Assembly (NCBI GenBank): GCA_965220195.1
Contig: CBDCPK010000005.1
Span: 3,029,875 to 3,093,874 of the forward strand
Source of the DNA: an uncultured Candidatus Binatia bacterium
Lineage (GTDB): Bacteria > Desulfobacterota > Binatia > Bin18
Direction of reading: 5' to 3'
DNA: 64,000 nucleotides
Shown here: piece by piece, positions 29,312 through 46,152 of the stretch
Layout: each line of letters starts with the position of its first letter
How positions within the stretch are numbered: position 1 is the first letter of the stretch
Translations under genes and position numbers: made by a program
Notes under the pieces: model-generated
What the model was told of the DNA's origin: nothing
The model's input: the letters and a program-made list of their open reading frames with translations, nothing else
The model's database searches: none

Positions 29312-29413
29312 CGTCCCCTTGATTCCCTTTGTTCCCGCCCGTTTGCCCCAGCGCCCAACGATTGGTCAGGGAAGGGAATGTGATAATGTTAATATCAAGA
29401 GAGAGGAGTAGGG

Positions 29414-29880: not shown

Positions 29881-29892
29881 GGAAAGGGGCAA

Positions 29893-30123: not shown

Positions 30124-30235
30124 CAACGAGGCTCTGAGGTAGAGATGAAATTCCCTAGAGGGTGTTAGGCACTTCTGACAACCTATTGATTTTATGTAGG
30201 TTTTTTACAGAGCCACACAATGCCGCCCTCTATTT

Positions 30236-30372
30236 TGCTGTTCCCGAGGGGCCCGAAAACGCGGCAGTTTCGGCAGCATGCCGGGAACAGTAACTGTCCA
30301 GCGATTCCAAAGGGTTAGCCCTTGAAAAAAAAGCTGTTCCGCTGTTCCCGACCTCTAATGGGGAACAGAAAG
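30236..30372. promoter_or_regulatory. Array of CTGTTCC/GGGAACAG inverted and direct repeats upstream of hsdR (candidate operator region)
   Basis: CTGTTCCCG-N35-CGGGAACAG with a nested CCGAAA/TTTCGG hairpin. Second palindrome CTGTTCCC-N11-GGGAACAG. Tandem CTGTTCCGCTGTTCCC and GAACAGAAAGAACAG. Confidence 0.4.
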
Positions 30373-30462
30373 AACAGAAAATATGACCATACGCTGACAA
30401 TGGACGAGGCGGTACTATGCTGGCGCAAGAGGGTGAGATGTGATGAATGAAAGAATCCCGCC

Positions 30463-32871
30463 ATGCAGAAGACCCGTCTCAGCGAAAGCGATGTCCGCGC
30501 CAAGTATATTACGCCAGCCCTGCATCAGGCCGGCTGGGACGAGGCGCAGATTCGGCGCGAGGTCAGCTTCACCAAGGGCCGCATTATCGTGCGCGGCAAG
30601 CTGGTCAGCCGGGGTGAGGGCAAGCAGGCCGATTACGTCCTGCACTACAAGCCCAACCTCCCCATTGCGCTGATTGAAGCCAAGGACAACATGCACGCGG
30701 TTGGTGATGGCATGCAGCAGGCCCTGGGCTATGCCGAGACGCTGCATATCCCCTTTGTTTTTTCCTCCAACGGCGAGGGTTTTGTGTTCCACGACCGGAC
30801 CGGCCTGAGCCCTGAGCGGGAAACCACCCTCAGCCTGGACGCCTTTCCCGCGCCGGCCGAGCTGTGGGAGCGCTATCGTGCCTGGAAGGACCTGACACCA
30901 GAGGCCGAGTCCGTTGTTTCGCAGGACTATTTCAGCGACGGCGGCGGGAAGACCCCGCGCTACTATCAGGTCAACGCCATCAACGCCGCCATTGAGGCTA
31001 TTGCCAAGGGCCGCGAGCGCCTCCTGCTGGTCATGGCTACCGGAACGGGCAAGACCTATACCGCCTTTCAGATCATCTGGCGGTTGTGGAAGGCGGGCGG
31101 TAAAAAGCGCATTCTGTTTCTGGCCGACCGCAATGTGCTGATTGACCAGACGATGGTCAACGACTTCCGGCCTTTCGGTCCGGCCATGGCCAAGCTGTCG
31201 CCCAGGGCCGGGACCATCGAGCGCGCGGACGGTGCCTCCGAGGACCTGAGCGCCGCGATTGACCGCAGGCGGCGGATTGACACCTCGTATGAAATCTATC
31301 TCGGCCTGTACCAGGCCCTGACCGGGCCGGAGGACCGTCAGAAAGTCTTTCAACAGTTTTCGCCCGGCTTCTTCGACCTGATTGTGATTGACGAGTGCCA
31401 CCGCGGCAGCGCGGCCGAGGATTCGGCCTGGCGGGAAATCCTGGACTATTTCTCGTCCGCCACCCACATTGGTCTGACGGCCACGCCCAAGGAAACGGCC
31501 TATGTGTCCAACATCGAATACTTTGGCGAGCCGGTCTATACCTACTCGCTCAAACAGGGCATCCACGACGGATTTCTGGCCCCCTACAAAGTCATCAAGG
31601 TGCATATCGACCGCGACGTAGAGGGCTACCGACCCGAATCCGGCCAGTTGGACCGGGACGGGCACGAGGTCGAGGACCGCCTCTACAACACCAAGGATTT
31701 TGACCGCAATCTGGTATTGGACGAACGGACCAAGCTGGTGGCCCGCAAGATCACCCAATTCCTGAAGGAAAGCGGCGACCGCTTCCAGAAGACGATTGTC
31801 TTCTGCGTTGACCGGGAGCACGCGGCCCGGATGCGCCAGGCCCTCATCAACGAGAACGCCGCCCTGGTAGGCGAGAATCACCGCTATGTCATGCGGATCA
31901 CCGGCGGCGACACCGAGGGGCAGGCTCAACTGGACAACTTCATTGACCCGGAATCCCGATACCCCGTATTGGTCACCACTTCGCGTTTGCTCTCGACCGG
32001 GGTGGATATCCAGACCTGCCGGCTCATCGTGCTTGACCGGGAGGTGGGCTCCATGACCGAGTTCAAGCAGATTGTCGGTCGCGGCACCCGTGTGCACGAA
32101 GACACACGCAAGTTCTACTTTACGCTGATGGATTTTCGGGGCGCGACCGGTCATTTTGCCGACCCGGACTTTGACGGCGAGCCGGTGCAGATATACGAAC
32201 CCGGCGAGGACGATCCCATCACGCCGCCCGACGACGAAACAACGCCCCCGCAACCGGGCGAGGATGAGACGATTGTAGATGGTCTGCCACCCGATAGGCA
32301 GAAACCCCGCAAGATATATGTGGATAGTGTGAGCGCCGGCATCGTTGCCGAGCGGGTTGAGTATCTGGACCAATACGGCAAGCTGGTCACCGAGTCCTTA
32401 CGTGACTTTACCCGAAAGGCGCTGAAAAAGCGCTTTGCCAGCCTGGACGATTTTCTCCGGCGCTGGAAAGCGGCCGAACGCAAGCAGGCCATTCTTGAGG
32501 AATTGGCTGCCGAGGGGCTGGCGCTCGACACGATTGCCCAGGAACTCGGCAAGGACCTCGACCCTTTTGACCTGATTTGCCATGTAGCTTTTGACGCCAA
32601 GCCGCTGACCCGGCGCGAACGGGCTGAAAACGTCAAGAAGCGCGACGTGTTCGCCAAGTACGGAGACCGGGCCCGCACCGTGCTCGACGCATTACTCGCC
32701 AAGTATGCCGACGAGGGCGTGCTGAATCTGGACGATACCAACGTGCTGCGCATCCCACCCTTGAGCAACCTGGGCACCCCGCTGCAGCTTCTTAAGGCCT
32801 TTGGCGGCAAGGGAAGGTTCGTCCAGGCCGTTCACGATCTGCAAGCCGAGCTGTATAGGGAGAGCGCGTAA
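30463..32871 (+). CDS. hsdR: Type I restriction enzyme R subunit (HsdR)
   Basis: The N-terminal SESDTRAKYITPALHQAGW motif is classic for HsdR. Walker A GTGKT and DECH box (VIDECHRGS). Helicase C domain. Confidence 0.9.
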   Translation: MQKTRLSESDVRAKYITPALHQAGWDEAQIRREVSFTKGRIIVRGKLVSRGEGKQADYVLHYKPNLPIALIEAKDNMHAVGDGMQQALGYAETLHIPFVFSSNGEGFVFHDRTGLSPERETTLSLDAFPAPAELWERYRAWKDLTPEAESVVSQDYFSDGGGKTPRYYQVNAINAAIEAIAKGRERLLLVMATGTGKTYTAFQIIWRLWKAGGKKRILFLADRNVLIDQTMVNDFRPFGPAMAKLSPRAGTIERADGASEDLSAAIDRRRRIDTSYEIYLGLYQALTGPEDRQKVFQQFSPGFFDLIVIDECHRGSAAEDSAWREILDYFSSATHIGLTATPKETAYVSNIEYFGEPVYTYSLKQGIHDGFLAPYKVIKVHIDRDVEGYRPESGQLDRDGHEVEDRLYNTKDFDRNLVLDERTKLVARKITQFLKESGDRFQKTIVFCVDREHAARMRQALINENAALVGENHRYVMRITGGDTEGQAQLDNFIDPESRYPVLVTTSRLLSTGVDIQTCRLIVLDREVGSMTEFKQIVGRGTRVHEDTRKFYFTLMDFRGATGHFADPDFDGEPVQIYEPGEDDPITPPDDETTPPQPGEDETIVDGLPPDRQKPRKIYVDSVSAGIVAERVEYLDQYGKLVTESLRDFTRKALKKRFASLDDFLRRWKAAERKQAILEELAAEGLALDTIAQELGKDLDPFDLICHVAFDAKPLTRRERAENVKKRDVFAKYGDRARTVLDALLAKYADEGVLNLDDTNVLRIPPLSNLGTPLQLLKAFGGKGRFVQAVHDLQAELYRESA

Positions 32872-32874
32872 TTC

Positions 32875-34335
32875 ATGTCCGTTCGCACTCTGGTCAAATC
32901 CATTCAGGACATCATGCGCCAGGACACGGGCGTGGACGGTGACGCCCAGCGTATCAGTCAGTTGTGCTGGATGTTCTTTCTCAAGATCATTGACGACCAG
33001 GACCAGGAAATGGAGATGGAGAGGGAGGGGGAGGGCTACACGTCCCCTATACCCGAGCAGTTTCAATGGCGGACCTGGGCGGCCGACCCCGAGGGCATGA
33101 CCGGTGAGGAACTGTTGAACTTTATCAACGCCGACTTGTTCCCGTCGCTGAAGAACCTGGAAATTGACCAGGCAGGAGCCCGTAGCCGCGTTGTGCGCGA
33201 TGTTTTTGAGGATGCCTACAACTACATGAAGTCCGGCCAGTTGGTGCGTCAGGTGGTCAACAAGATCAACGATATTGACTTTAATGACCTGACCGAGCGT
33301 CAGCATTTCGGCGACATCTACGAGCAGATTCTCAACGACCTGCAATCCGCGGGCAATGCCGGCGAGTATTATACGCCCCGCGCCGTAACCGCCTTTATGG
33401 TTGATCGTATCGACCCCAAGCCGGACGAGACCGTATTCGACCCGGCCTGCGGGACCGGTGGCTTTTTGACCTGTGCACTGCGTCACATGCGTGAGCGTTA
33501 TGCCAAACGGCCCGAAGACGAACCGACCATACAGGCTGCCCTGCGTGCCGTTGAAAAGAAGCAGCTCCCCCACATGCTGTGCGTGACCAATATGCTGCTG
33601 CACGGCGTTGAAGACCCGAGCTTTGTGCGCCACGACAACACCCTGGCGCGGCCCTACATTAGCTGGGAGCAAAAGCACCGGGTGGACATTGTCCTGACCA
33701 ACCCGCCTTTTGGCGGCAGGGAGGAAGACGGTATTGAGGCCAACTTTCCGAAAGAGTTTCGGACCAAGGAGACCGCAGACCTGTTCCTGGCTCTTATTAT
33801 CCGCCTGCTGAAGCCGGGTGGGCGCGCCGCCGTGGTGCTGCCCGACGGCTCGCTGTTTGGCGAGGGCGTCAAAACGCGGCTCAAGGAGCACTTGATGGAG
33901 GAGTGCAACCTGCATACCATCGTGCGCCTGCCCAATTCCGTGTTCCGGCCGTATGCCTCTATCGGCACCAATCTGCTGTTCTTTGAGAAGGGCGCACCAA
34001 CCACTGACATCTGGTTCTACGAGCACCGCGTGCCCGCAGGTCAGAAAGCCTATTCCATGACCAGGCCGATCCGGCTGGACCATTTACAGCCCTGCATCGA
34101 CTGGTGGGGTGGGGCGGAGCGCACGGACCGCACGGAAACGGAGCGCGCCTGGAAGGTGACCGCCGAAGCCGTCAAGGCGCGCGGCTACAACCTGGACATC
34201 AAAAACCCGCATACCCAGGCAGACGACCTCGGCGACCCGCAAGAACTGCTGGCCAAGCTCAGCGCAACCGAGGCCGAGGTCACGGACTTGCGGGACCAGT
34301 TAAAGGCGATATTGGCCGAGGCGTTGCTGCGGTAA
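32875..34335 (+). CDS. hsdM: Type I restriction-modification N6-adenine DNA methyltransferase M subunit (HsdM)
   Basis: NPPFGG catalytic motif, SAM-binding FDPACGTGGFL, and the HsdM N-terminal domain. Starts 4 nt after the hsdR stop. Confidence 0.9.
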   Translation: MSVRTLVKSIQDIMRQDTGVDGDAQRISQLCWMFFLKIIDDQDQEMEMEREGEGYTSPIPEQFQWRTWAADPEGMTGEELLNFINADLFPSLKNLEIDQAGARSRVVRDVFEDAYNYMKSGQLVRQVVNKINDIDFNDLTERQHFGDIYEQILNDLQSAGNAGEYYTPRAVTAFMVDRIDPKPDETVFDPACGTGGFLTCALRHMRERYAKRPEDEPTIQAALRAVEKKQLPHMLCVTNMLLHGVEDPSFVRHDNTLARPYISWEQKHRVDIVLTNPPFGGREEDGIEANFPKEFRTKETADLFLALIIRLLKPGGRAAVVLPDGSLFGEGVKTRLKEHLMEECNLHTIVRLPNSVFRPYASIGTNLLFFEKGAPTTDIWFYEHRVPAGQKAYSMTRPIRLDHLQPCIDWWGGAERTDRTETERAWKVTAEAVKARGYNLDIKNPHTQADDLGDPQELLAKLSATEAEVTDLRDQLKAILAEALLR

Positions 34336-34395
34336 GGGCCGCTTGCAATCCACCGTTTCAGCCCCTCTCTCGCTCTCCTCTGTGGCCTTCATATC

Positions 34396-34456
34396 CCCTC
34401 CTTGGAGGGGTGGCCCGAAGGGCCGGGGTGGGTTCCTTTTCGCATCACACGTCCCG
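34396..34456. repeat. Third (inverted) copy of the 43-bp GGAACCCACCCC unit fused to the GTGGGTTCCTTTTCGCATCACACGTCC element
   Basis: CCCCTCCTTGGAGGGGTGGCCCGAAGGGCCGGGGTGGGTTCC is the reverse complement of 3819-3861. It is followed by a near copy of 3955-3985. Confidence 0.55.
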
Positions 34457-34593
34457 AGAGGAGAGAAGAGCACAGGCCTGTCCTTTACCACCGTATTGGA
34501 ACGCCTCCGGCTCATCCAACCTGCGGAACGAGTTTGATGCATACGGCTATTCCCCCTAAATTTGACTGATCCTAGTCATAAGGGGAATCACTC

Positions 34594-34890
34594 TTGAATA
34601 AATCCCGTCAAGCCAGGCAGACCGGCCCGGCACGGACTTCCGGCTGGAAGCTGGGAGAGGCCAAGGCAAAGTTCAGTGAACTCGTTCGCCTTGCCGCGTC
34701 CGGGCAGCCGCAACGGGTCACGGTTCACGGGAAGGACGCCGTGGTCATCGTCGCGGCAGACACATTCGAAGCCCTCCAGGCGCGGGAGCAATCGGGCAGC
34801 TTACACGAACTCCTGTCCCAATCTCCGCTGAGCCGTATCACGTTCGGTGGAGATAGTGTTCGGAGTCCGGTCCGTGAGTGTGCGTTGTGA
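34594..34890 (+). CDS. Phd/YefM-family antitoxin-like protein
   Basis: WKLGEAKAKFSELVR...VTVHGKDAVVIV matches the Phd/YefM N-terminal fold. TTG start after an AAGGGGAA RBS. Confidence 0.55.
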   Translation: MNKSRQARQTGPARTSGWKLGEAKAKFSELVRLAASGQPQRVTVHGKDAVVIVAADTFEALQAREQSGSLHELLSQSPLSRITFGGDSVRSPVRECAL

Positions 34891-34936
34891 ATAGCGCTTG
34901 CCTCTCTCGTCTTTCTATTTCACAATGGTCTCCATG

Positions 34937-35149
34937 AACACGGTCACTGTTCGCCTGGATGCAGAGCTTGCCCTTGAGTTGACAAAACTCGCGAAACGTA
35001 CGGGACGCCCCAAAAGCGAGTTGATTCGCCGTGCGTTACGCCGCCAACTGGCATTGGCTCGTTTTGAAGAACTGCGTCAGGGTGTCGCGCCGTTCGCAGA
35101 GGCCAGAGGGTGGCTTACGGATGAAGACGTTTTCCAGAACGTCTCATGA
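34937..35149 (+). CDS. Ribbon-helix-helix (CopG-like) antitoxin
   Basis: MNTVTVRLDAELALELTKLAKRTGRPKSELIRRAL is a typical RHH. Its stop overlaps the vapC start. Confidence 0.6.
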   Translation, partial: NTVTVRLDAELALELTKLAKRTGRPKSELIRRALRRQLALARFEELRQGVAPFAEARGWLTDEDVFQNVS

Positions 35150-35541
35150 GGGTATTCTTGGACACCAACGTGCTGGTTGCCGCCTACGCGACGCGCGGAC
35201 TTTGTGAGGATGTCTTTCGAGTCATATTAGCAGAACACGAACTCGTCGTGAGCGAGACCGTGCTCGCCGAATTTGAGCGCGTCCTGGTGCAGAAGCTCCG
35301 CTTGCCTCTTCCGCAAGTAAAAACACTGTCATCTTTCTTACGAAGACAGGCCGACATCGTTGACCCTGTCGCTCCCTCCGTGTGGCCGAAACGTGACCCG
35401 GACGACCGATGGGTCGTTGCGGCAGCGATAGAGGGAGGCGTTGATTTTCTTGTCACTGGTGATCGTGACCTGCTTGAAGTCGCTGCTGAAGTGCCCGTTT
35501 CCATCGTCTCGCCGCGAACGTTCTGGGAGCAACTTCGTTAG
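35146..35541 (+). CDS. vapC: VapC-family PIN-domain toxin
   Basis: MRVFLDTNVLVAA N-terminus, with conserved Asp/Glu positions later in the sequence. Confidence 0.8.
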   Translation: MRVFLDTNVLVAAYATRGLCEDVFRVILAEHELVVSETVLAEFERVLVQKLRLPLPQVKTLSSFLRRQADIVDPVAPSVWPKRDPDDRWVVAAAIEGGVDFLVTGDRDLLEVAAEVPVSIVSPRTFWEQLR

Positions 35542-35678
35542 TCCGCAGGGTGGCTGAGGAAAATGTCAGGTGAAGCTTCGCTCACTTGGCCTACGAGGCT
35601 GTTGGCCGGTTACACTCCTAAAGCATTGCCAAAAAGTAGCCTATACGCTACTGGAGGGTATGCCTGGGAGATGAGCAT

Positions 35679-35999
35679 ATGGCAAGGCGCACCATTCCGT
35701 ACGAAGACCTCCTCTATCAGGACCTCCAAGACCCCGAAGAGGCTGTGGCGTATCTGAACGCTGCCCTGGACGACGAATATGCACAGGGGGCAGAGGTCTT
35801 TCTCTTAGCCCTCCGTGATGTTGCCAAGGCTCGTGGTATGAAACAACTCGCTCAGGACACGCAACTCAGCCGGGAGAGCTTGTACCGAACATTGTCCCGT
35901 AAGGGGAACCCTCGCTTTTCCACGCTTGAGGCCGTGTTGAAGAGTCTTGGGCTGAAACTGAGTGTGACGGTGAAGCCCCCGGAAACAAAGGCTGCCTGA
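35679..35999 (+). CDS. HigA-family addiction-module antidote protein (orphan)
   Basis: DPEEAVAYLNAALDD...LLALRDVAKARGM...SRESLYRTLS matches the TIGR02684-like antidote family. No killer partner is detected upstream. Confidence 0.6.
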   Translation: MARRTIPYEDLLYQDLQDPEEAVAYLNAALDDEYAQGAEVFLLALRDVAKARGMKQLAQDTQLSRESLYRTLSRKGNPRFSTLEAVLKSLGLKLSVTVKPPETKAA

Positions 36000-36005
36000 C
36001 CTCCG

Positions 36006-36065
36006 CGTTACCTCTTCAATGAATGCCGAACACCTGCTCACCCACTTCGACCGCATAGCCGACGC
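36006..36065 (+). repeat. Direct repeat 1: duplicated 5' end of hsdS (about 50 bp plus GCCGACGC)
   Basis: CGTTACCTCTTCAATGAATGCCGAACACCTGCTCACCCACTTCGACCGC matches 36804-36852 with two mismatches. Confidence 0.7.
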
Positions 36066-36109
36066 GGCGCAGGTGACGCTTCGCTCGCCTAGGCTACGAG
36101 GCTGCCGAT

Positions 36110-36604
36110 ATGACTAAACCACGCGTGTATGTTGAGACCACGATTCCCAGCTTTTACCACGAAGAGCGCTCTGCTCCCGACATCGTAGCGCGCCGGGAAT
36201 GGACGCGGCGATGGTGGGACAGTGCGCCCGAGCACTACGAGCTTGTCACCAGCCCGGCCGTTCTGGACGAGCTGGCCCGCGGGATCCCGGAACGCAGTGA
36301 GAGACGCCTGTCGCTGGTGCGCAATCTCCCGCTCCTGCCCGTCGAATTGGCTATCACCGAGATCGTCCAAGGGTATATCAGGCACAAGCTGATGCCGGCG
36401 GATCCTGGTGGTGACGCCTTGCACTTGGCGCTCGCCTCCTACCACAAATGCGACTTTCTGGTAACGTGGAATTGTCGACATCTGGCAAACGCGAACAAGT
36501 TTGGCCATATCCGCCGTGTGAATACGATGCTCGGCCTTTTTATTCCGGCGCTCGTGACCCCGTTGGAACTCTTTGGAGGGAGCGATGAAACAGAATCAGA
36601 GTGA
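36110..36604 (+). CDS. PIN-like domain protein (putative VapC-like toxin)
   Basis: C-terminal DALHLALASYHKCDFLVTWNCRHL resembles the PIN C-terminal motif. The N-terminus (VYVETT) has Glu in the first acidic position. Confidence 0.5.
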   Translation: MTKPRVYVETTIPSFYHEERSAPDIVARREWTRRWWDSAPEHYELVTSPAVLDELARGIPERSERRLSLVRNLPLLPVELAITEIVQGYIRHKLMPADPGGDALHLALASYHKCDFLVTWNCRHLANANKFGHIRRVNTMLGLFIPALVTPLELFGGSDETESE

Positions 36605-36782
36605 CCCGGTGATTGATGAGATTCGAGAAGTGCGGCACCGCATCTCGGCGTGCTTTGGCCATGACCCCACACGGTTGGTAGCCTTCTACATGGAAATGCA
36701 GAAGCAGTACCAGGACCGGCTGATTGAGACCGCAAAGAGTTCTCAGGATAAGGATAACCAGCAATCTGACACGGCGCTTTAA
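36585..36782 (+). CDS. Small partner protein of the PIN-like gene (putative antitoxin), 65 aa
   Basis: Overlaps the PIN-like gene's 3' end by 20 nt. Charged helical protein. Confidence 0.4.
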   Translation: MKQNQSDPVIDEIREVRHRISACFGHDPTRLVAFYMEMQKQYQDRLIETAKSSQDKDNQQSDTAL

Positions 36783-36803
36783 CGCGCGAACAGCTCGCCG
36801 CAT

Positions 36804-36863
36804 CGTTACCCCTTCAATGAACGCCGAACACCTGCTCACCCACTTCGACCGCCTCGCCGACGC
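36804..36863 (+). repeat. Direct repeat 2: authentic 5' end of hsdS
   Basis: Partner of 36006-36065. Contains the hsdS start codon at 36817. Confidence 0.7.
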
Positions 36864-38532
36864 ACCGGACGCTATTCCGCGCTTGCGCCGGTTTATTCTT
36901 GATCTGGCGGTACGCGGCAAGCTGGTGGAGCAGGACCCGGAGGATGAGCCGGCGGGGGAGCTGTTGAAGCGGATTACGCCTGAGAAGCAACGACTTGTGG
37001 CTGAGGGGAAATTCAAATCGCTAGATACTACCGAATTCGATAATGGAGCAGAGAATGTTTCATTCTCAATCCCTGCTAATTGGGTGTGGTGTCGCCTGGA
37101 TGATATAGCAGCAATTGCCAGAGGCGGGTCGCCACGACCCATCAAAGCTTATCTCACGGATGACAGGGACGGCATCAACTGGATAAAGATCGGCGATTCA
37201 GAGAGAGGCAGTATCTACATAAACGAGACGAAAGAAAAAATTCGGCCTGACGGCCTAAAGAAATCAAGAATGGTCTTCCCCAATGATCTGATTCTATCGA
37301 ACTCTATGAGTTTTGGTTATCCATATATCTTGAATATTCAAGGATGCATACACGACGGATGGTTAGTCATACGAACTCCAGATGGTTTGTTGGATAAACT
37401 GTTTCTCTACAATTTGCTCCTTTCAAGCCATTCTAGGAACACGTTTTCAAATGCTGCGGCAGGGGCAGTAGTACAAAATCTAAATGCGGATAAGGTGCGG
37501 AGGCTTTCCATCCCCCTCCCACCCCTTGCCGAACAACACCGCATCGTCGCCAAAGTTGATGAACTGATGGCCCTGTGTGACCGGCTGGAAACAGCGCGGG
37601 AGGAGCGGGAAGCGACACGCAACCGACTGGCAACGGCAAGCCTCGCCCGCCTCAACGCACCCGACCCCGACCCGGCGGTCTTTCAGAACCACACGGCCTT
37701 TGCCCTCAACAACCTCACTCCGCTTACTACCCGTCCAGACCAGATCAAGGCGCTACGTCAGACCATCCTTAACTTGGCGGCACGGGGGAAGCTGGTGGAG
37801 CAGGACCCGGAGGATGAACCGGCGGGGGAACTGTTGAGAAAAGTAGCTGAGACCCGGAAGGCTCTAGTCGCTGAACGTAAAATGAAGCGTTCAAAGGACC
37901 TGCCGCCAGTAGAGGATCAAGAGATTAAGTTTGGTATACCAGCAGGATGGGCCGTTACTCGTATGGGCGTCGCGTATGACGTTCGTGACGGAACTCATGA
38001 CTCACCGAGGTACGTTGATGAGGGGTATCCACTTATCACTAGCAAAAACCTATCTTCCGGGTACTTATCCTTTGACGAGACGAAATTGATTAGCGAAGAG
38101 GACTACATTAAAATCTCGCAGCGATCTGCAGTCGTAAAAGGCGATATACTTTTGGCGATGATTGGGAGCATCGGAAATCCAGTGATCGTCGATACTGATC
38201 AACCATTCGCAATCAAAAATGTCGCCCTGCTAAAATATTTTGATCCAGACTATTCTAATCCCAGATTTTTACGGTTTTTCCTTCTAAATGCTGCTAACGA
38301 GATGAAGGCTCTTGCTGCCGGTGGTTTGCAACCATTCGTCTCACTTAGTTTCCTGCGAAACTATCCTCTTGCTCTTCCGCCGCTTGCCGAACAACACCGC
38401 ATTGTTGCCAAGGTTGATGAACTGATGGCGGTGTGTGACCGGTTGGAGGCGAGCCTTGCTGGGGGTGAGGAGACGCGGGGGCGGTTGGTGGAAGCGGTGT
38501 TACATGAGGCGTTGGCGCCAGAGTTGCACTGA
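36817..38532 (+). CDS. hsdS: Type I restriction-modification specificity subunit (HsdS)
   Basis: Two target-recognition domains. The duplicated conserved regions LAxRGKLVEQDPEDEPAGELL and LPPLAEQHRIVAKVDELMAxCDRLE each occur twice. Confidence 0.85.
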   Translation: MNAEHLLTHFDRLADAPDAIPRLRRFILDLAVRGKLVEQDPEDEPAGELLKRITPEKQRLVAEGKFKSLDTTEFDNGAENVSFSIPANWVWCRLDDIAAIARGGSPRPIKAYLTDDRDGINWIKIGDSERGSIYINETKEKIRPDGLKKSRMVFPNDLILSNSMSFGYPYILNIQGCIHDGWLVIRTPDGLLDKLFLYNLLLSSHSRNTFSNAAAGAVVQNLNADKVRRLSIPLPPLAEQHRIVAKVDELMALCDRLETAREEREATRNRLATASLARLNAPDPDPAVFQNHTAFALNNLTPLTTRPDQIKALRQTILNLAARGKLVEQDPEDEPAGELLRKVAETRKALVAERKMKRSKDLPPVEDQEIKFGIPAGWAVTRMGVAYDVRDGTHDSPRYVDEGYPLITSKNLSSGYLSFDETKLISEEDYIKISQRSAVVKGDILLAMIGSIGNPVIVDTDQPFAIKNVALLKYFDPDYSNPRFLRFFLLNAANEMKALAAGGLQPFVSLSFLRNYPLALPPLAEQHRIVAKVDELMAVCDRLEASLAGGEETRGRLVEAVLHEALAPELH

Positions 38533-38601
38533 CGATATTCTTAACTTAGTTACATGCGAATTATCCGTCTACGAACGATAGCGGATTGTAGAAGGTGATG
38601 G

Positions 38602-39894
38602 ATGGAACTAGAGAAGATAAAAAGCGTGGATGAGTACCTACGCTCTTTACAATCTTTGCGCAATGCACATGCCTACAGGTATAGGGGACAATCTAACAGT
38701 GCATGGCCGGTATGCTCCTCATGGGCTCGCGCATTTAAAGGCCAAACACATTGGGACTGCCTTTCCTACCATTCAGACCTGATACGCGATTTTCCTTCCT
38801 TTGATTCTCTACCTGGATACGTAAGAGACCTTTCCAGAGAGAATCCGAGTCTTCTTACAGATTGGGATAAAGTAGCAATTATACAGCATTATGGAGGTGA
38901 GACTGGAAAAAAGACTATACTGACCGACTTTACTATAAGGCCGCTTATTGCCCTATGGTTCGCTTGTCAAGAAAAGGAGCACCGGAAAGAAGACGGAAAA
39001 GTCTTTGCTGTTTCAATTGATATTTTAGACGAGGTAGGGCTCCCGCATATCGATGATTATATTCGGGGCAACCATTCAGATTTGTACACTCTCGATAGAT
39101 CGTACCTATTTCCTACAAGTTTTCAGTACAATCCCAGAGGCAATACCAGAAGTCCTCACAAAAGCTATGTTTCTCGGATCGATAAGCAAGCATCATCCTT
39201 TGTCCTAGGGATTGAGAGGGTTGAGGAGGCTAAATGCAAATCAGTCATAATTGAGGCCAGCAGCAAGAAGCGAATACTCAATGAGTTGCGCTACTTTTTC
39301 TCCATATCAGAGAAAGCGCTCATGGATGATTGGTATGCTCTTGGCGAGGCTGTAGCGAACGGCAAGGAGGTGTCTACCGACGGTTTTACCGATGCTGAGT
39401 ACTATAACTTAGCGAAGGATATTAGTTTGTTACATAGACAACCGAGGGCTGGGCGTCCTTATTTTGAGGAAGCCCTCCAATACTGGCATTCTCAGAGAGA
39501 TCGTAGAGAGGCAATGGTTAAAGCCAGTTACTCTGATGACGCCGACCGAGAAAGAGTGCGTTGTTACATGAATCAAGCAGGAGCGCACTATTACATGAAT
39601 ACGGCTTGGACGATCTACTGTCTTGAGGATGCAGATGAGGGGGAGACACGGCGTGCTTGTGGTTATGCCCACAAGGGTTTTGATATGGCTAGCTATGATC
39701 CACAGCGTCCCGGATTCGCTGTAGTCTATGCCCTTTGTCTACTGAGATTGAATAAGGAAAAAGCCGCATACGATTTATGCAGGAGAGAACTCGATTTCTA
39801 CGAGCACTCTGCCCCCGCCTTCTGTACGGGCAAGAATTCTCCTTCTATTGATAAATTGAGAAGGATAGTGAACATTTATGAGGCTCACCATTAG
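38602..39894 (+). CDS. FRG-domain protein
   Basis: The N-terminal YRYRGQSNSAWPV motif is the FRG signature. Low G+C. GAAGGTGA RBS. Confidence 0.65.
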   Translation: MELEKIKSVDEYLRSLQSLRNAHAYRYRGQSNSAWPVCSSWARAFKGQTHWDCLSYHSDLIRDFPSFDSLPGYVRDLSRENPSLLTDWDKVAIIQHYGGETGKKTILTDFTIRPLIALWFACQEKEHRKEDGKVFAVSIDILDEVGLPHIDDYIRGNHSDLYTLDRSYLFPTSFQYNPRGNTRSPHKSYVSRIDKQASSFVLGIERVEEAKCKSVIIEASSKKRILNELRYFFSISEKALMDDWYALGEAVANGKEVSTDGFTDAEYYNLAKDISLLHRQPRAGRPYFEEALQYWHSQRDRREAMVKASYSDDADRERVRCYMNQAGAHYYMNTAWTIYCLEDADEGETRRACGYAHKGFDMASYDPQRPGFAVVYALCLLRLNKEKAAYDLCRRELDFYEHSAPAFCTGKNSPSIDKLRRIVNIYEAHH

Positions 39895-40080
39895 CAATCT
39901 CTCATTGATTAACTAGACGCTCACACCTCTGGCAACCCAACCCCACGAACTCCACAAAATTTCCCTAGAAGCAGCCTGACTTCATCTGGACGATTTTCAC
40001 TTGTCCGATTGCGAGCGGATGGGATGCAAGCCAGGGACTCCTTCACCCTCACCCTCTATAGGGGAGAGAGAATAGGACAG

Positions 40081-40125
40081 GGACAGGGCTGGGAATGTCG
40101 GATTACGCCGCCGGTTCATCCGACC
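40081..40125 (+). repeat. 45-bp direct repeat, copy a (GGGAATGTCGGATTACGCC...)
   Basis: About 85 percent identical to 41703-41745 in the same orientation. Confidence 0.55.
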
Positions 40126-40183
40126 TACGGGACGCTCTTGAAGCCGTTGACAACATGTCCCATATCCGGGACACTATTCTTCC

Positions 40184-40516
40184 GTGAGGCCCGCCTTCTT
40201 TCATCCCAAAGCGAGAGACATCTTGCGGACTTTTCCAGAAACAGTACGAAAAGAGTTGGGCAAGGCTATTATAGATTTGCAGAAAGGGGCTTCTGTAGGC
40301 CCGCCCCTCTCTCGGCCTATGCCGTCCGTGGCTCTAGGGACAAATGAACTCAGAATCCGTGATCGTACGGGAATTTATCGAACCTTTTACTATACAAAGG
40401 CAGCGCGTGGGGTCTTGATCTTTCACGCGTTTATTAAAAAGACGCAGAAAACGCCGTTACGAGAGATTGAGACCGGAAGGAAACGGCTTAAGGAGATGCT
40501 CCATGAACTCAGCTAA
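40184..40516 (+). CDS. higB: HigB-like toxin (RelE/ParE superfamily, Gp49-like)
   Basis: LRIRDRTGIYRTFYYTKAARGVLIFHAFIKKTQK matches the Gp49/HigB family. GTG start. Confidence 0.65.
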   Translation: MRPAFFHPKARDILRTFPETVRKELGKAIIDLQKGASVGPPLSRPMPSVALGTNELRIRDRTGIYRTFYYTKAARGVLIFHAFIKKTQKTPLREIETGRKRLKEMLHELS

Positions 40517-40802
40517 ACCTGTCGTTGCAGAAGACGCGACTGCGCTGGCGGAAATTTTAGGACTGACTCCCATTGATGGAGCGGAAATCCAGTTGCGGAG
40601 CGACTTGAATGACAAAATTATTGAGGTTGTGGAGAAAAGCGGACTCACCCACGCTCAGGTTGCCAAACTGGCTCGGACTTCCCGGTCCCGTATGACGGCA
40701 ATTCTCAACCGTAATACCCAAGATGTCTCTACTGACCTGATGCTCCGCATCATGGCCGGCTTAGGCTATCGGGCCAAACTGACCTTCTCACGGGTGGCGT
40801 AG
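40503..40802 (+). CDS. higA: HigA-like XRE-family HTH antitoxin
   Basis: HTH motif LTHAQVAKLARTSRSRMTAIL. ATGA overlap with the higB stop. Confidence 0.7.
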   Translation: MNSAKPVVAEDATALAEILGLTPIDGAEIQLRSDLNDKIIEVVEKSGLTHAQVAKLARTSRSRMTAILNRNTQDVSTDLMLRIMAGLGYRAKLTFSRVA

Positions 40803-40986
40803 CCGACTTCTTCAGCCCCGTAGCCTCCGTCTCATCCGACCTCTGGAACTCAGCGGGTTCGTTGCCTGATATGGACTAGGCGGAAGATGGCACATCTAAG
40901 AAGTTGACAAGCTAATTTGAGACGCATATGGTTTTGCTGTGACTGACAGAGTTGCCTGAGCGACTCGCTGAAGTCAGTCGCCTTCA

Positions 40987-41020
40987 ACGCTAACTTTTGG
41001 TGGTTAGCGTTTTTCTTTTT
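40987..41020 (+). terminator. Rho-independent terminator (8-bp stem ACGCTAAC/GTTAGCGT plus T-run)
   Basis: Perfect 8-bp stem with an 8-nt loop, followed by TTTTTCTTTTT. The same bases encode the Lys-rich C-terminal tail of the convergent minus-strand PIN gene. Confidence 0.5.
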
Positions 41021-41292
41021 ACGGATTTTCCCGGTCGGTTTTTTCTTGTCTTTTTGTCATCCAGGTCGGTCAGGAGCCTGTCGATTTCGTCGTCTGTCCG
41101 TCCGTGGAGCCGGACGAGACGCGGACGGCGCAACACGGACGAATACTCGTTGAGCAGGTCGTCCGACATGAGGTAAAGGAGGTCGCCATCAAGCATGGCG
41201 TCCAGTATCCGTGCTGGGGGACTGCTCGAATCCGCGCCGATCAGCCCCGAAACGATGACATTGGTGTCGATAATACAAGCCTTCGGCGTCAT
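40990..41292 (-). CDS. PIN-domain toxin (VapC-like)
   Basis: ACIIDTNVIVSGL PIN N-terminal signature. Basic C-terminal tail. Confidence 0.7.
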   Translation of the reverse strand: MTPKACIIDTNVIVSGLIGADSSSPPARILDAMLDGDLLYLMSDDLLNEYSSVLRRPRLVRLHGRTDDEIDRLLTDLDDKKTRKNRPGKSVKRKTLTTKS

Positions 41293-41334
41293 CGGCTCTC
41301 TTCCGCACCTCTCGAACTTGGCCGCTGACGCCGC

Positions 41335-41580
41335 TCAGCGCGACTGCTCGTCACGAAAACGTCTTGTTTCCTCGACTGCCAGGGCCATCGCGTCGGGAGC
41401 GTTCAATCCAAACTGCGCTCGCGCCTTGGCGACAATCTCCTTGGCGGTATCGTAGGGTCGGATCCCTCTCAGTTCCAGGCTTTCCTCGATGATTGAAGCC
41501 ATGGAACGATTCTGCCGGGCCGCCGCTTCCTTCAGTGCCCGGTGTGTCCGGTCGGCTAAACTGATGGTCAGGCGGGGCAT
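41335..41580 (-). CDS. Ribbon-helix-helix antitoxin partnering the PIN toxin
   Basis: MPRLTISLADRTHRALKEAAARQNRSMASIIEESL is an RHH fold. Located upstream of the toxin on the same strand. Confidence 0.6.
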   Translation of the reverse strand: MPRLTISLADRTHRALKEAAARQNRSMASIIEESLELRGIRPYDTAKEIVAKARAQFGLNAPDAMALAVEETRRFRDEQSR

Positions 41581-41702
41581 GAGGATACACTCCTGTTCAT
41601 AAGCGCCGATTCAATGCTGCAAGCACCATAACACCATACCGACAATCTACATGTCCCACTCTTCAAAGGGAACTCTCCCCCTCGCGAGTCTCGGGGATGT
41701 CG

Positions 41703-41745
41703 GATTACGCCCCCGGCTCATCCAACCTATAGGGCTATGGGCGAC
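41703..41745 (+). repeat. 45-bp direct repeat, copy b (GGGGATGTCGGATTACGCC...)
   Basis: Partner of 40081-40125. Confidence 0.55.
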
Positions 41746-41861
41746 CCGACTCCCCTCTCGGGACGTGTAATACATATTAGGCTGTGACCGATGGAGTAGG
41801 TCCCTCTGAAAGCGGAGTCAACAGGGGCTGGGGGAGAGCGACGGGGTTCATTGCATCGTAT

Positions 41862-44510
41862 TCAACGTCGTTTCTCGGTAAACTCTTGTCGGATTTCTGT
41901 CACGGTATCCCTGATCTCCGCAGGTAGGGGTTCAAGTTCTTCGCCCAATTCTTCCCGTACAGCGTGCCAGAGCGGCTCCATTGGCTCGGCCAGTCCGGCT
42001 TCCTCCATTATCTGCTTGACGCGCGGGCCGTGGCCGGCGGCGACGGCCCGGATCAACGACTCTGTTAAACTAGGCCATTCCTGTTCCTGGAAGTCGCCGC
42101 CGATGCGTAGCGCGTGTTCGATCTGGTCCAGCGCTTCTGTCCATTGGCCACGATGAGCCAAGACATCGGAGAGCGTTTGAAAAGTGCTCGGATTCTTCGG
42201 CCCCAGTTCTATCGCGCGGCGGGCGCATTCCTCGGCCTCCAGCAGACGCGCGGCGTCATTCTGGTCAAGAATCGCTGTTGCCAGAATACGCCATGCTTCA
42301 TCATACGTCGGTGCGATATCCGTCGCCCTTCTACAACCAGCTTCCGCTTCATCGTGCCTTCCAAGTACGTTCGATAACCGACCGCCAGCTATCAGCCATT
42401 TTGCGACTGGACGACGTAGTTCCATCGGGTCGTTTGAGCGTACATAATCCGAGGAACGTTGAAAAATGGCGGCTACGTCTTCGTACCGTTTCAGGCCACC
42501 AATGCTAATGGCTTTTCTGCCTAGCGCTCTAATGGCTACATCACGCAGTTCCTTTGGGTCCTCCGTGCGGACATACTCGGTGGTCCGCTCCCAAGCAGCG
42601 GTGGCTTTTTCGTTGCGTCCCAGCTTGGCAAGAAGGTCACCCTTGGCGTTGAACGCCTCGGCGGCCAATTGGCGTAAGTCCACAGAGTCATCTGGATGGA
42701 CGTATTCCGTGACACGCTGCCAAGCAGCGATAGCCTCTTCATGACGACCCAATTTGGTGAGAGCCATGCTGTTGGTCCCGTGAGCCCAGGCGGCCATGTT
42801 GCGCAATTCTACCGAGTCATCCGGACGGATATATTCCGATGCCTGCTCCCATGTGGCGATGGCGTCTTCGTGCCGCTCCAGTTGGAAAAAAGCAAGGCCC
42901 TTGCTTGCCAATGCCGCGACGACTACGCCGCGTAATTCTGGCGAACCAGACGGACTCGTCTGCTCCAAGACACGATCGGAGGCGGCTATGGCGTCTTTGA
43001 AACGGCCCTCTTCAATCAGCGTGACGCTGCGTTCCACCCACTCGACAAGACGCTCTAGGCTTGCTTTATCTTGGCCTGCAAACGCCTCCTGAATTTTCTC
43101 AACGACCGGCGCGTTCGGACTGATAAAGTTCTTAGCAAGATCGAGCGCCTCGCGTTGCCAGTCCTCCCGCCCTTTGAAGTCCGTATCTCCAGCTACGTAG
43201 CCAGCCAGGATGGTGAGCCAATCGGACGCTTCTCCGCCGTGTGAGCCGTTCACTCGTAACGCCGACAGTACCGCCGGATACATCATCCGCATTCCGGATG
43301 GACCGAAAAGATCGTGAAGGAAGGCGACGAGTCGCTCTAAGCGGTGCCGGCCTGCACGCGAGAAGCGTAGCAGATAGTAGATGTTGTAAAATCGATCGCT
43401 GACTTCATATCGTATCCGCTTTGCTCCTCGTAGCCGGATCTCTTTTGCATAGCCCTTTTCCATAAGTTGCTTGAGTTGGGCGCTAGCGTGCGAGGAGTTT
43501 AGATTCGCGGCGTCGGCAACCTCCCTCGCCAGCATCGGCTTCCATCCCTCCGCGAGACAGTGAAATACTTTGCGGGACTGACCCGGTAATTCCTCGATCC
43601 GGGCTTTGAAATAAGGCGTCTGTTCGTCGATGAGCCGTTCCAGATCCTCAAAGGCAGAGCCGAGCGGCGATTCGATCAGGAGCCGACAGGCAAGAACCAG
43701 CAACCGCGGGTTCCCGCCCGTCAGCCGACGCAGGGTCTCCAGCCGGCCACGTTCATGACGCAGGGTTTCCGCAATTCCTGGCTTGCCGTCGCAAGCCGCG
43801 AGTGTTTCAAGTATGCGGAGAGTCTCTTCCTGCCCCAGACCTTCGAGCAGGAAGAGCCGGAAGAACTCGTAAAACGGCTCGCCGTGTCCTCGGATGGCTT
43901 CGAAGACGGCGTTAGCAGAACCGACCAACAGGATATTCGGACATTCAATCAGACTGGCCCGCAACGCGTGAACTTCGCGCTCGTCGCGCAACTGCTCGAA
44001 GACGGCGTCGAGGTTCTCGACGAACAGGATCAACCGTTTGCCGCTTGCCCGGCAAAAGTCCATAAGCGCTGCGAGCGCGTACGCGGCGAGCCGTTCCGTG
44101 TCTCTTTCGTCCTGGGCTAGAGCGTTGGCTCTGTCCTCCCACTGCGAGTCCTCGGTGGCGCGGGTCAGATGGCGCAGAGCGACAAGCCAGAAGTCCGCCA
44201 AGTTACCGACATCGTAGCTTTCCTCGTAGAACGGGACGGGTTGCCAGTTCGCGGCAAGGTCGGGCGACTCTCCAACTGCGTGCAGAAACCGTAGCCCAAG
44301 GGTAGTTTTTCCCATTCCGCGCGGGCCGATGAGCAGCATATGCTGACACGGTCGTCCGCGCTGCTGCTCGCGAATCAGGCGGAGCATCTCTGCGAGAGTT
44401 TTTTTACGAGCGACGAACGACGCCTTCAACTCGTCAGGAGTAAGCTGGGCCGGGTTGTACAGACGCTGGCGGATCATGACGCGACACTCCCGTGGTATTT
44501 CCGCCACCAT
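41862..44510 (-). CDS. STAND-like P-loop NTPase with winged-helix and C-terminal TPR array (882 aa)
   Basis: Walker A GPRGMGKTT. Walker B hhhhD(VEN)LD. Winged-helix region. At least 8 TPR-like repeats with a recurring A..W/Y..A pattern. An alternative start at 44477 gives a 4-bp overlap with the upstream gene. Confidence 0.7.
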   Translation of the reverse strand: MVAEIPRECRVMIRQRLYNPAQLTPDELKASFVARKKTLAEMLRLIREQQRGRPCQHMLLIGPRGMGKTTLGLRFLHAVGESPDLAANWQPVPFYEESYDVGNLADFWLVALRHLTRATEDSQWEDRANALAQDERDTERLAAYALAALMDFCRASGKRLILFVENLDAVFEQLRDEREVHALRASLIECPNILLVGSANAVFEAIRGHGEPFYEFFRLFLLEGLGQEETLRILETLAACDGKPGIAETLRHERGRLETLRRLTGGNPRLLVLACRLLIESPLGSAFEDLERLIDEQTPYFKARIEELPGQSRKVFHCLAEGWKPMLAREVADAANLNSSHASAQLKQLMEKGYAKEIRLRGAKRIRYEVSDRFYNIYYLLRFSRAGRHRLERLVAFLHDLFGPSGMRMMYPAVLSALRVNGSHGGEASDWLTILAGYVAGDTDFKGREDWQREALDLAKNFISPNAPVVEKIQEAFAGQDKASLERLVEWVERSVTLIEEGRFKDAIAASDRVLEQTSPSGSPELRGVVVAALASKGLAFFQLERHEDAIATWEQASEYIRPDDSVELRNMAAWAHGTNSMALTKLGRHEEAIAAWQRVTEYVHPDDSVDLRQLAAEAFNAKGDLLAKLGRNEKATAAWERTTEYVRTEDPKELRDVAIRALGRKAISIGGLKRYEDVAAIFQRSSDYVRSNDPMELRRPVAKWLIAGGRLSNVLGRHDEAEAGCRRATDIAPTYDEAWRILATAILDQNDAARLLEAEECARRAIELGPKNPSTFQTLSDVLAHRGQWTEALDQIEHALRIGGDFQEQEWPSLTESLIRAVAAGHGPRVKQIMEEAGLAEPMEPLWHAVREELGEELEPLPAEIRDTVTEIRQEFTEKRR

Positions 44511-45670
44511 TCCCGCAAGAGATTCGAGCGGAATTTCAGGTGACTGTCTTCCTGTTTTACGTAACCGTCGGCCTCCAGGTCGCGGAGCACGGACTGGAAC
44601 GTTTGCTCGTTGCGCTGTCGCAACTCTTCGAGTTCCGCGAGAGCCACACCGTCCTCTCGCCGGCAGACGCGGCTCAGGATATCACGTGCCGCTTCGTGTT
44701 CGTTCTCGTCAAATGCAATTTCGAGGCGCGCTGCATAATGGTCCAGATGGGCGGTGCCACTGGCTCCCGCCAGACGTTCCGCGAAACACCGCTCAATCAC
44801 TTCCAACGAAACGTGAGAAGCTTCGCCTCTGCAAGCATCGCGAAGCGCCGAGAAGAAAAGCTGAACATGGTACGGAACGGGCTCCCGCAGCAGGTCCAGG
44901 ATATGCGTGATAGCTTTTTCGTCGAGAGGAAAACTAGAATCACCGCCCAGCCCTTTCAGAAATTCGACAGCGGTCGGCCTGTTCCACGAGTCCAGGCGGA
45001 ACGGAGAGAGATCGTTAATCAGCCCTGAAAGGCCCGCGCGGCGCAGGACTCCTTCAAGTCCGATCGATCCGCCGACAAGTGTACGGACCCTGGTGCGCAA
45101 TTCTGGCGCTTGGCGCCAAGACCGAAGCCTGGACAGTAGTAATTCAGCATCATGTTTCCGCTCCTCATTCCGCAGCATCCGCGAAAGGAGGAGCGGTAGT
45201 TCATCAATGATGATCAGAAGATTCCCGCCGGTGTCCGGCAGGCTCGTCAGGCGCGCCGTGAGTTGGTCCGCAGCGTGGTCCCACTCACGGCCAATCGCCC
45301 GTCTGAGTTCGACACGCACTATGCCAGTATCAACACTGGCGGACAGGCGTCCAAAGACACCCTTGATGGCGTTCGAGAATGGAATCGCCTCGAAACGGCT
45401 TCGATATTGAGGATTGGCTGCCAGAGCAGCGATAATCGCCGCCATGCAGTCCGCCGGGTCGTCCCCACTTTCAACATCCACATAGATGACATCCCAGTTC
45501 TCGCGCGGCGCGCGGCGGAGCTCCAGCATTAAGCTGGTCTTGCCCACCCGCCTGGGGGCGAGCATTAGAATGTGCTCTCCTTGTTCCAGCTTTTCCCAGA
45601 GGCGGGCTATCTCGTAATCTCGTCCATAGAGGTCGTCGCCGACGACTGCCTGGCCAGTGACGTTGCGCAT
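44474..45670 (-). CDS. AAA+/ATPase_2-type P-loop ATPase with C-terminal winged-helix-like region (398 aa)
   Basis: Walker A APRRVGKTS. Walker B LLIIIDE. Same family architecture as the N-terminal half of the downstream gene. AGGAGA RBS and an AT-rich promoter with a TTGCCAAAAA duplication. Confidence 0.7.
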   Translation of the reverse strand: MRNVTGQAVVGDDLYGRDYEIARLWEKLEQGEHILMLAPRRVGKTSLMLELRRAPRENWDVIYVDVESGDDPADCMAAIIAALAANPQYRSRFEAIPFSNAIKGVFGRLSASVDTGIVRVELRRAIGREWDHAADQLTARLTSLPDTGGNLLIIIDELPLLLSRMLRNEERKHDAELLLSRLRSWRQAPELRTRVRTLVGGSIGLEGVLRRAGLSGLINDLSPFRLDSWNRPTAVEFLKGLGGDSSFPLDEKAITHILDLLREPVPYHVQLFFSALRDACRGEASHVSLEVIERCFAERLAGASGTAHLDHYAARLEIAFDENEHEAARDILSRVCRREDGVALAELEELRQRNEQTFQSVLRDLEADGYVKQEDSHLKFRSNLLREWWRKYHGSVAS

Positions 45671-45953
45671 ATATGAATCTCCTGTGGAGATTTTAGTGTG
45701 GCACCACGATAAATGACAAAGATATTTTTGGCAATAGATTTTTTGGCAAAAATTCTGATGTTATCTTTTGGTAAGGAGAAAATACTGCTAGGACAAAGAC
45801 TTAAAATCGCTCGTGAAGCGTAAGCCACCAAACGGCAGGAATGCGTTTGATCGTTCCGTTCAAGGGGAGGCGAGGCTACGAGGAGAGCCGATCAGATTTC
45901 TTTGGGGGGCAAAAACGTATCCACGAAACCACGAGGGGAAGTCACAGAGACGT

Positions 45954-46055
45954 CGCTCAGCGCGATTGCTCTTCACGAAAACGTCTTGTTTCCTCGACTG
46001 CCAGAGCCATCGCGTCGGGAGCGTTCAATCCAGACTGCGCTCGCGCCTTGACGAC
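45954..46055 (-). pseudogene. Truncated duplicate (3' about 100 bp) of the RHH antitoxin gene at 41335-41580
   Basis: About 90 percent identical to 41332-41433. No start codon and no intact ORF. Confidence 0.6.
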
Positions 46056-46152
46056 AAGACTAAGGCAAACTGTCCTCCCGCCTCCAGTTTAACAGAAGTA
46101 GTCTTATCGGACGTAATCTGCCTCAACGTAGTGCGAGACCTACTGTCCGGCA

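Follow-up and report, generated by a model that had tools for sequence, protein, structure and literature searches.

A low-copy REP-type hairpin repeat as a candidate recombination joint of a toxin-antitoxin and defence island in an uncultured Candidatus Binatia bacterium

What kind of element is a short direct repeat that stands between toxin-antitoxin (TA) modules, and does it take part in their exchange or is it only carried along? This question is raised by a 64-kb stretch of DNA from an uncultured Candidatus Binatia bacterium (assembly GCA_965220195.1, contig CBDCPK010000005.1, positions 3,029,875 to 3,093,874), here called the window, which contains a 16.8-kb part with TA, restriction and defence genes, here called the island. 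An earlier note on this DNA described a pair of 45-nt repeats around two TA pairs and proposed that such modules are shuffled by recombination at short conserved sites. The answer that we favour, with moderate confidence, is that the repeat belongs to a family of the repetitive extragenic palindrome (REP) type, is low in copy number and acts as a recombination joint of the island. Loci used for comparison are designated by L and a number.

When the window was searched with the motif GGGRATGTCGGATTACGCC, two matches were obtained, at 40091 and 41693, both on the plus strand, compared to an expectation of 0.04 from shuffled sequences. The positions given previously (40081 and 41703) were each 10 nt off. 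An identity of about 85 percent, as claimed for the pair, was found over the first 41 nt (85%), but not over the entire 45 nt, of which 36 agree (80%); over 37 nt the value is 89%. The common orientation of the two copies was confirmed, as was the presence of two TA pairs between them, namely higBA (40184-40802) and a truncated vapC with a ribbon-helix-helix (RHH) antitoxin gene (40990-41580, minus strand). Contrary to the earlier note, the repeat is not limited to these two positions. Its 22-27-nt core, GCCnCCGnnTCATCCRACCT, is present in four copies, all of them on the plus strand (repeat search; nhmmer E-values of 1e-7 to 3e-9, next best match above 1), the two additional ones being a full copy at 34489 and a right-half copy at 40816. 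Since the half copy is located between the two TA pairs, each pair is bracketed individually.

All four copies are extragenic and lie between annotated open reading frames (ORFs; Table 1). Copy A is flanked by a gene for an FRG-domain protein on one side and by the higB promoter on the other; the promoter/operator of higBA (TTGACA..TGTCCCATATCCGGGACA) follows immediately 3' of the copy. Copy B is located between the promoter region of the RHH/vapC pair and the 3' end of a gene encoding a STAND ATPase with TPR domain. For copy A, the canonical REP orientation, with GTAG 5' of the hairpin, is found on the minus strand. The half copy starts 14 nt past the higA stop codon, and the same place is occupied by a full copy in L063 and L064.

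Table 1 Repeat copies and associated features of the island (CM, covariance model; positions refer to the window)
Feature	Position	Strand	Remarks
Full copy A, GGGAAT-GTCGGAT-TACGCCGCCGGTTC-ATCCGAC-CTACGGGACGC	40091..40135	+	CM 58 bits, E 4e-14
Full copy B, GGGGAT-GTCGGAT-TACGCCCCCGGCTC-ATCCAAC-CTATAGGGCTA	41693..41737	+	CM 54 bits, E 6e-13
Third full copy	34489..34531	+	CM 43.6 bits, E 4e-10; between hsdM and the Phd antitoxin gene
Right-half copy, CCCCGTA-GCCTCCGTCTC-ATCCGAC-CTCTGG	40816..40847	+	nhmmer E 1e-7; left arm lost
Second-family element, hairpin and CTAC (GTCAGGTGAAGCTTCGCTCACTTGGCCTACGAGG)	35559..35601	+	Repeat search; weak CM match, E 0.11; boundary after the RHH/PIN module
Second-family element, other copy	36065..36104	+	CM E 2.7; left end of the 742-bp PIN (164 aa) module in the hsdS 5' end
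higB (Gp49/PF05973)	40184-40516	+	
higA (HTH_37)	40503-40802	+	
Truncated vapC (PIN_3, 100 aa)	40990-41292	-	
RHH antitoxin gene	41335-41580	-	
Segment upstream of hsdR	30223..30410	+	Homologue in L001 (6737-6925) and L002 abuts the left foot of the element before higBA

The evidence that carries the favoured reading comes from comparison with relatives. The exact HigA protein and five HigA homologues were looked up, which led to 22 contigs from related islands, mostly labelled Candidatus Binatia; the island of the window was compared with 16 related loci. Related islands carry genes for type I restriction-modification, cyclic-oligonucleotide-based antiphage signalling (CBASS), AAA_15 and STAND proteins along with many TA pairs. 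A check of what the repeat flanks in related genomes, as had been suggested, revealed copies at module boundaries with differing neighbours. Across the element, the left neighbour of the higB promoter flank takes three forms. It is the FRG flank in the window and L028, a remnant of the RHH promoter flank of 110-147 bp in L048-L050, and, in L001 and L002, a homologue of the segment that precedes hsdR in the window. Three neighbours are likewise found after higA and the half copy, namely a DUF3800-like gene (L001, L002 and L061, with a remnant in the window), a gene for an HTH-peptidase of family M78 (L028-L031) and vapC-RHH (L016); the divergence begins 0-12 nt beyond ATCCGACCT. The RHH-side flank in turn has three right partners, which are the STAND flank (window, L028), the higB flank (L048-L050) and another flank (L016). 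The alignments thereby show that the left and the right neighbours differ between loci and have been joined at both feet of the hairpin.

Individual copies point in the same direction. The copy in L050 is a hybrid that resembles copy B in its left part and copy A in the loop and the right arm. In L062 (5830-5930), a truncated hsdM is joined to the 3' tail of the element and the higB promoter at an internal GACGACCT, which is a look-alike of the right arm; the fusion lies between GACGACC and the following T. Two full copies bracket higBA in L063, and pairs of co-oriented copies bracket HicB in L010, HicAB in L011 and VapC-RHH in L016. In L001 and L002 the homologue of the segment upstream of hsdR abuts the element, which suggests that copy A (40091) may have received the 9.7-kb block from hsdR to the FRG gene as an insertion at its left foot. 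From these arrangements we infer that TA and defence modules have probably been inserted, deleted and re-ordered through copies of the element as recombination joints. Two more specific proposals were rejected. L048-L050 do not represent a permuted RHH-higBA order, as they contain a remnant of the RHH promoter and no RHH gene. The half copy is not part of a mobile higBA cassette either: conservation of the higBA module among relatives stops at CTTCTTCAG, 13 nt beyond the stop codon, and in most relatives the homology linked to higA ends there, which makes the downstream half copy a neighbour and not a part of the module.

Breakpoints of homology were found at all four copies. At copy A, homology to L048-L050 begins exactly at 40091, and that to L001, L002 and L062 at 40117-40121. 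Breakpoints at copy B fall at 41696-41701 (L063, L004) and at 41729 (L016, L050), and the half copy has breakpoints on both sides, at 40813-40815 (8 loci) and at 40842-40845 (L028, L029, L016). The copy at 34489 is part of a 190-250-bp segment that is absent from L048, L061 and L063, with its right edge at 34532 being a breakpoint with L061. Grouping of 150 internal alignment ends between the island and the 16 loci yielded 70 clusters, seven of which fall on the four elements (extended by ±8 nt), which constitute 1.36% of the island (binomial P = 5e-5). As few events are involved and many of the loci are closely related, this enrichment is indicative and should not be read as a rate.

The element has the architecture of a REP. 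Its consensus, (GGGRAT)GTCGGAT-TAC-GCC-TCC-GGC-TC-ATCCGAC-CTACGGGAC, comprises a 7-bp outer stem, an internal loop and a 3-bp inner stem, with CTAC one base past the foot. In most of 47 copies the stem and one C are followed by CTAC; the window copies have CTAC, CTAT, CTGC and CTCT. REPs are defined (PMC3333891) as imperfect palindromes of 30-40 nt in which a conserved GTAG precedes the foot on its 5' side. The complementary strand of the element, GTAGGTCGGATGAGCCGGAGGCGTAATCCGACA, agrees in layout and outer sequence with the E. coli y REP beside rayT (GTAGGCCGGATAAGGCGTTTATGCCGCATCCGGCA). The consensus folds exactly alike, and the outer sequence common to both is GTAGG(Y)CGGAT...ATCCG(R)CA. 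In the literature, the 11-mer GTAGGTCGGAT is found mostly in papers on E. coli. Two types of loop were distinguished, type A (..ACGCCTCCGGCTC..) and type B (..ACGCTTC-GCTAA..).

The folding energy of 56-nt windows around the copies was no better than that of shuffled sequences (non-significant z-scores), while the trimmed consensus folds as a hairpin of 7 bp and 3 bp with z-scores of -2.5 to -2.7 compared to shuffles. Since the energy signal is weak, the case for a hairpin is based on covariation. In a MAFFT alignment of 21 copies, about 90% of the cells were paired and three pairs showed compensatory double changes, a result reached by 14 of 500 shuffles. With 44 distinct copies, five pairs and 12 cells with double changes were obtained, compared to 0-1 of 500 shuffles, although this alignment was fitted to covariance model R1 and hence leans towards structure. 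Examples of compensated arms are GTCGGCT...AGCCGAC and GTCGGAA...TTCCGAC. The copy at 34489 has the variant left arm ATTGGA...TCCAAC, in which pairing is retained by a change from C-G to T-A. The left arm in L004 (about 6310-6350) has the sequence TGTCGGATT-gatagccagcggtagc-GGATTACGCC, which corresponds to a 5-nt duplication of GGATT around a 16-nt filler and is possibly the scar of an earlier event.

The distribution of the element differs from that of the REPs to which it is related in form. Classical REPs occur in hundreds of copies and mark stable regions, and islands are REP deserts (PMC3390384). A covariance model search of the window without filters placed all matches with E < 5 within 33.4-41.7 kb. 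The tally is four copies plus two of a second family in the 17-kb island against zero in the remaining 47 kb, which is core DNA. One genome per species (185,579 species) was scanned with the core pattern, which covers loop type A only. The scan returned 27 stretches with a single match each; no genome had more than one, including a complete 4.48-Mb Binatia chromosome, and this loop type A scan revealed no genome of high copy number. About 11 of the 27 stretches are true homologues in which the left arm is also present. They include seven Candidatus Binatia metagenome-assembled genomes (MAGs), four of which count as true only through a higA-linked half copy or a left-arm variant, as well as one Burkholderiaceae MAG and one Rhodothermaceae MAG. 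A metagenome scan gave 14 stretches (about five true, none in a TA context), viral contigs gave no match, and among 72,556 plasmids the element was not found, with only three sub-threshold partial matches.

Inverted doublets resembling REPINs (REP doublets that form hairpins) are present in L007, L026, L039, L043 and L045, on contigs not labelled Binatia, and are absent from the window and most Binatia loci. In L007 (6725-6989, Burkholderiaceae MAG), a triplet resembling a bacterial interspersed mosaic element (BIME) was observed between acnD and prpF in the prp operon. In L026 (555-640, Rhodothermaceae MAG), the element lies beside a 445-aa ORF that possibly encodes a restriction-modification methyltransferase. 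Both loci carry near-identical elements (85-95%).

The earlier note had named one outcome that would speak against module shuffling, an abundant genome-wide REP with no positional association to accessory modules. What was found is a hairpin of REP type in form, but of low copy number and confined to the island. With the REP/BIME/REPIN systems driven by REP-associated tyrosine transposases (RAYT or TnpAREP; E. coli, Pseudomonas) the element shares the imperfect palindrome, the GTAG/CTAC foot, the extragenic location, the layout and outer sequence of y REPs and, in some taxa, the doublets. It is unlike them in giving one pattern match per genome instead of hundreds, in residing in a variable island, in occurring as co-oriented singletons in Binatia and in the lack of any RAYT found in 500 kb of loci. 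Because its copy number does not correspond to such a population, the element is best classed as one that works like a REP, short of proven membership in a REP population driven by a RAYT.

Several findings weigh against a function as recombination joint. The remaining 63 of the 70 breakpoint clusters are located away from the elements, and clear rearrangements at 35180, 34970/36455 and 41327 use other sequences. No single bond is used at the junctions, which lie at -7, -4, -1 and +3 from the stem on the left side and at 0 to +12 after ACCT on the right side and are thus scattered over about 10 nt at each foot. In relatives without the element, hsdM is adjacent to phd and the RHH gene to the STAND gene, indicating that the element is not required for every junction; the copies at 34489 and 41693 separate no different genes in the relatives compared and, judged from the alignments, look like simple indels. 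Many of the compared loci are closely related, the junction events are few and not independent, and all relatives are MAGs or metagenome contigs. Neither an integrase nor a transposase was detected among the 50 larger ORFs of the window (Pfam), no integrase, Y1 or other recombinase appears in the gene calls of related loci, and a phmmer search with E. coli RayT found no homologue below E = 5 in 500 kb of loci. As the genome scan covered loop type A only, high copy numbers of loop type B may still occur elsewhere in these genomes. The proposal of module shuffling at short conserved sites is supported in part: it agrees with the three-way flank combinations and the junctions at the feet of the element in the 16 related loci, but neither a fixed bond nor a recombinase was found.

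We consider it unlikely that the copies are passive REPs or decaying remnants in the non-essential gaps of a gene-dense island, without any part in module exchange. This account would explain the junctions by the conserved elements being the only alignable DNA between unrelated flanks. The REP architecture, the REPIN-like doublets in other taxa, the behaviour of copies 34489 and 41693 as indels between already adjacent genes and the location of most breakpoints away from the elements are consistent with it. However, the pattern is reversed compared to classical REPs, with copies in the island instead of the core and one match per genome elsewhere, and all four copies are co-oriented. In addition, the L050 hybrid and the three-by-three combinations of flanks need recombination in or beside the element, and the L062 fusion makes use of a look-alike in hsdM. 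A cis-regulatory or RNA element of TA operons that travels with the module, such as a terminator, an insulator or an mRNA-stabilising hairpin, would be compatible with the other readings. REPs can stabilise upstream mRNA, and copy A is positioned about 15 nt upstream of the -35 box of higB in all relatives that retain higB. We nevertheless regard this explanation as most improbable. An intrinsic terminator was rejected, as there is no T tract and the elements were not called in terminator prediction, and no Rfam family matched up to E = 5 over 34.0-42.2 kb. The orientation of the element is constant although the flanked operons face either way (window; L011), and the element is also found beside unrelated genes (L007, L022, L026).

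Two further explanations invoke a dedicated enzyme. In the IS200/IS605 family of insertion sequences, HUH Y1 chemistry acts at the feet of co-oriented subterminal hairpins. The copies could accordingly delimit cargo cassettes moved in trans by a Y1 (HUH) transposase, each comparable to a palindrome-associated transposable element (PATE) with a TA pair, in which case a RAYT or TnpA from elsewhere would excise a single-stranded segment and insert it beside another hairpin. Co-oriented hairpins, not inverted repeats, indeed flank single TA modules in the window, L010 (HicB), L011 (HicAB), L016 (VapC-RHH) and L063 (HigBA). The junctions lie at both feet, which is where E. coli RAYT, whose C^T specificity is relaxed, cleaves inverted REPs (iREPs): it cuts CC^T within CTAC at one foot and C^T at the other. 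The right foot of the element, GACC^TAC, is a site explicitly listed, RAYT cutting GACC^TACA (PMC3333891). The position of the L062 fusion agrees with this, and REPtrons resemble the IS200/IS605 organisation (PMC3333891). On the other hand, no Y1 gene and neither tnpA nor tnpB was found in the 500 kb of loci, the TA modules are single-copy per locus and occur in related islands only, with no identical units seen repeated at unrelated sites, and left and right hairpins are undifferentiated. The boundary of higBA at CTTCTTCAG lies outside the element in many relatives, and the junction positions vary. Moreover, E. coli RAYT requires that the same strand carry a REP and an iREP in inverted orientation, while the copies here are co-oriented. 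Transposition in trans is thus quite improbable in our estimation. The wider proposal that the hairpins define an integron-like cassette system based on single-strand HUH (RAYT/IS200-type) chemistry, in which TA and defence modules are excised and re-inserted at the hairpin feet, would be similarly doubtful. We judge it very improbable that the element is a dedicated integron-like or Xer-like site analogous to attC, pdif or the sites of integrative mobile elements exploiting Xer (IMEX). Chromosomal integrons typically carry TA cassettes, as do pdif modules; the latter, found on Acinetobacter plasmids, are discrete TA modules bounded by short XerC/D recombination sites in varied contexts. As in integrons, small and often promoter-bearing TA modules are here separated by co-oriented short sites that form single-strand hairpins, and their order differs among relatives. 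However, no attC pair (RYYYAAC...GTTRRRY) is present on either strand of the entire island, compared to 2.4 expected by chance. The element has no R''/R' core sites, measures about 40 nt in contrast to 57-141 nt for attC and has no fixed crossover position, and neither the window ORFs scanned nor the gene calls of relatives include intI or another tyrosine recombinase gene. Its GC-rich 7-14-7 arm layout is unlike the 11-6-11 layout of dif, and no recombinase gene adjoins it. Sites of pdif type are 28 bp long, alternate in orientation and reside on plasmids, whereas the element forms direct hairpins on chromosomes and, as described above, was not found on plasmids. The BIME-like cluster inside the prp operon of L007 does not fit such a site either. 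In particular, the spread of junctions together with the lack of attC core sites and of a tyrosine recombinase argues against a site-specific system of integron or Xer type.

If the element is a recombination joint, as we favour, DNA would be broken and rejoined at or beside the extruded hairpin. Either hairpin copies may recombine with each other through short homology or template switching, or the reaction may be carried out in trans by a single-strand nuclease or transferase of the Y1 (RAYT/IS200) type that recognises the hairpin and would be encoded elsewhere in the genome. REPs reportedly serve as join-points of tandem duplications in Salmonella (Shyamala et al. 1990). The intergenic site between folA and apaH of E. 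coli is polymorphic and is occupied by either the ccdO157 TA system or a REP, and at the yafL-fhiA site of E. coli B1 strains hicAB replaces rayT and BIMEs (PMC3333891). The present case is comparable in that junctions are located in REP-type hairpins and that TA modules and REPs alternate at one intergenic site. It is different in that successive modules of one island are each bounded, and in that their neighbours occur in re-assorted combinations among the genomes of an uncultured lineage.

The island lies between a tRNA-Ser gene (29224-29312) and an SDR/PTPS gene pair (window 29224-46152) and contains, in this order, hsdR, hsdM, Phd, RHH-PIN, a HigA-like antidote, a 164-aa PIN gene, hsdS, the FRG-domain gene, higBA, the truncated vapC-RHH pair and two STAND/AAA ATPase genes. 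Outside the island, the window encodes ordinary metabolism and regulators. Att repeats derived from the tRNA were considered and rejected: the island adjoins tRNA-Ser, yet the 3' end of the tRNA has no repeat copy. The GC content falls to 0.46 over the 3' part of hsdS and the FRG gene (38-40 kb). Both copies of the second-family element lie at further TA-module boundaries between hsdM and hsdS, and GTCAGGTGAAGCTTCGCTCACTTGGCCTACGAGG is also present in L063 (1179-1221). A 742-bp insertion (36067-36808), which contains the gene for the 164-aa PIN protein as well as a 69-aa ORF, interrupts the 5' end of hsdS, and 83 nt from the start of hsdS are duplicated on its two sides (36006-36088 and 36804-36886). 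L063 lacks 36067-36808, and the hsdS arrangement is uninterrupted there.

The full-length VapC of L016 has 158 aa, while the window gene is 3'-truncated to 100 aa, and the toxin of this pair is probably dead. At 40905-41292, the promoter and start remnant of a DUF3800-like gene, which is intact in L002, is fused to the truncated vapC. An exact look-up of the RHH antitoxin protein gave no match. The RHH antitoxin gene has its 3' part (41327-41435) repeated over 109 nt (94%) at 45949-46057, by the SDR gene at the island edge, and homology between the window and L028 restarts exactly at 41327. In L001, L002, L053-L055, L057 and L062, higB is deleted or fragmentary and higA is intact; orphan antitoxins are common in related islands. 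In L063 and L064, the upstream partner of the same HigA is another ORF, of 98 aa.

The function of REPs, the question whether REP transposases move more than REPs, and the gain and loss of modules in islands without an integrase are open problems, for which a rare REP-type hairpin at the joints of an island, with neighbours re-assorted at its feet, provides a concrete and testable substrate. If modules were excised and re-inserted as cassettes by HUH chemistry, REP/RAYT systems would gain a role in building defence islands. If only short-homology recombination is involved, the finding would be a modest extension of the role of REPs as join-points of rearrangements.

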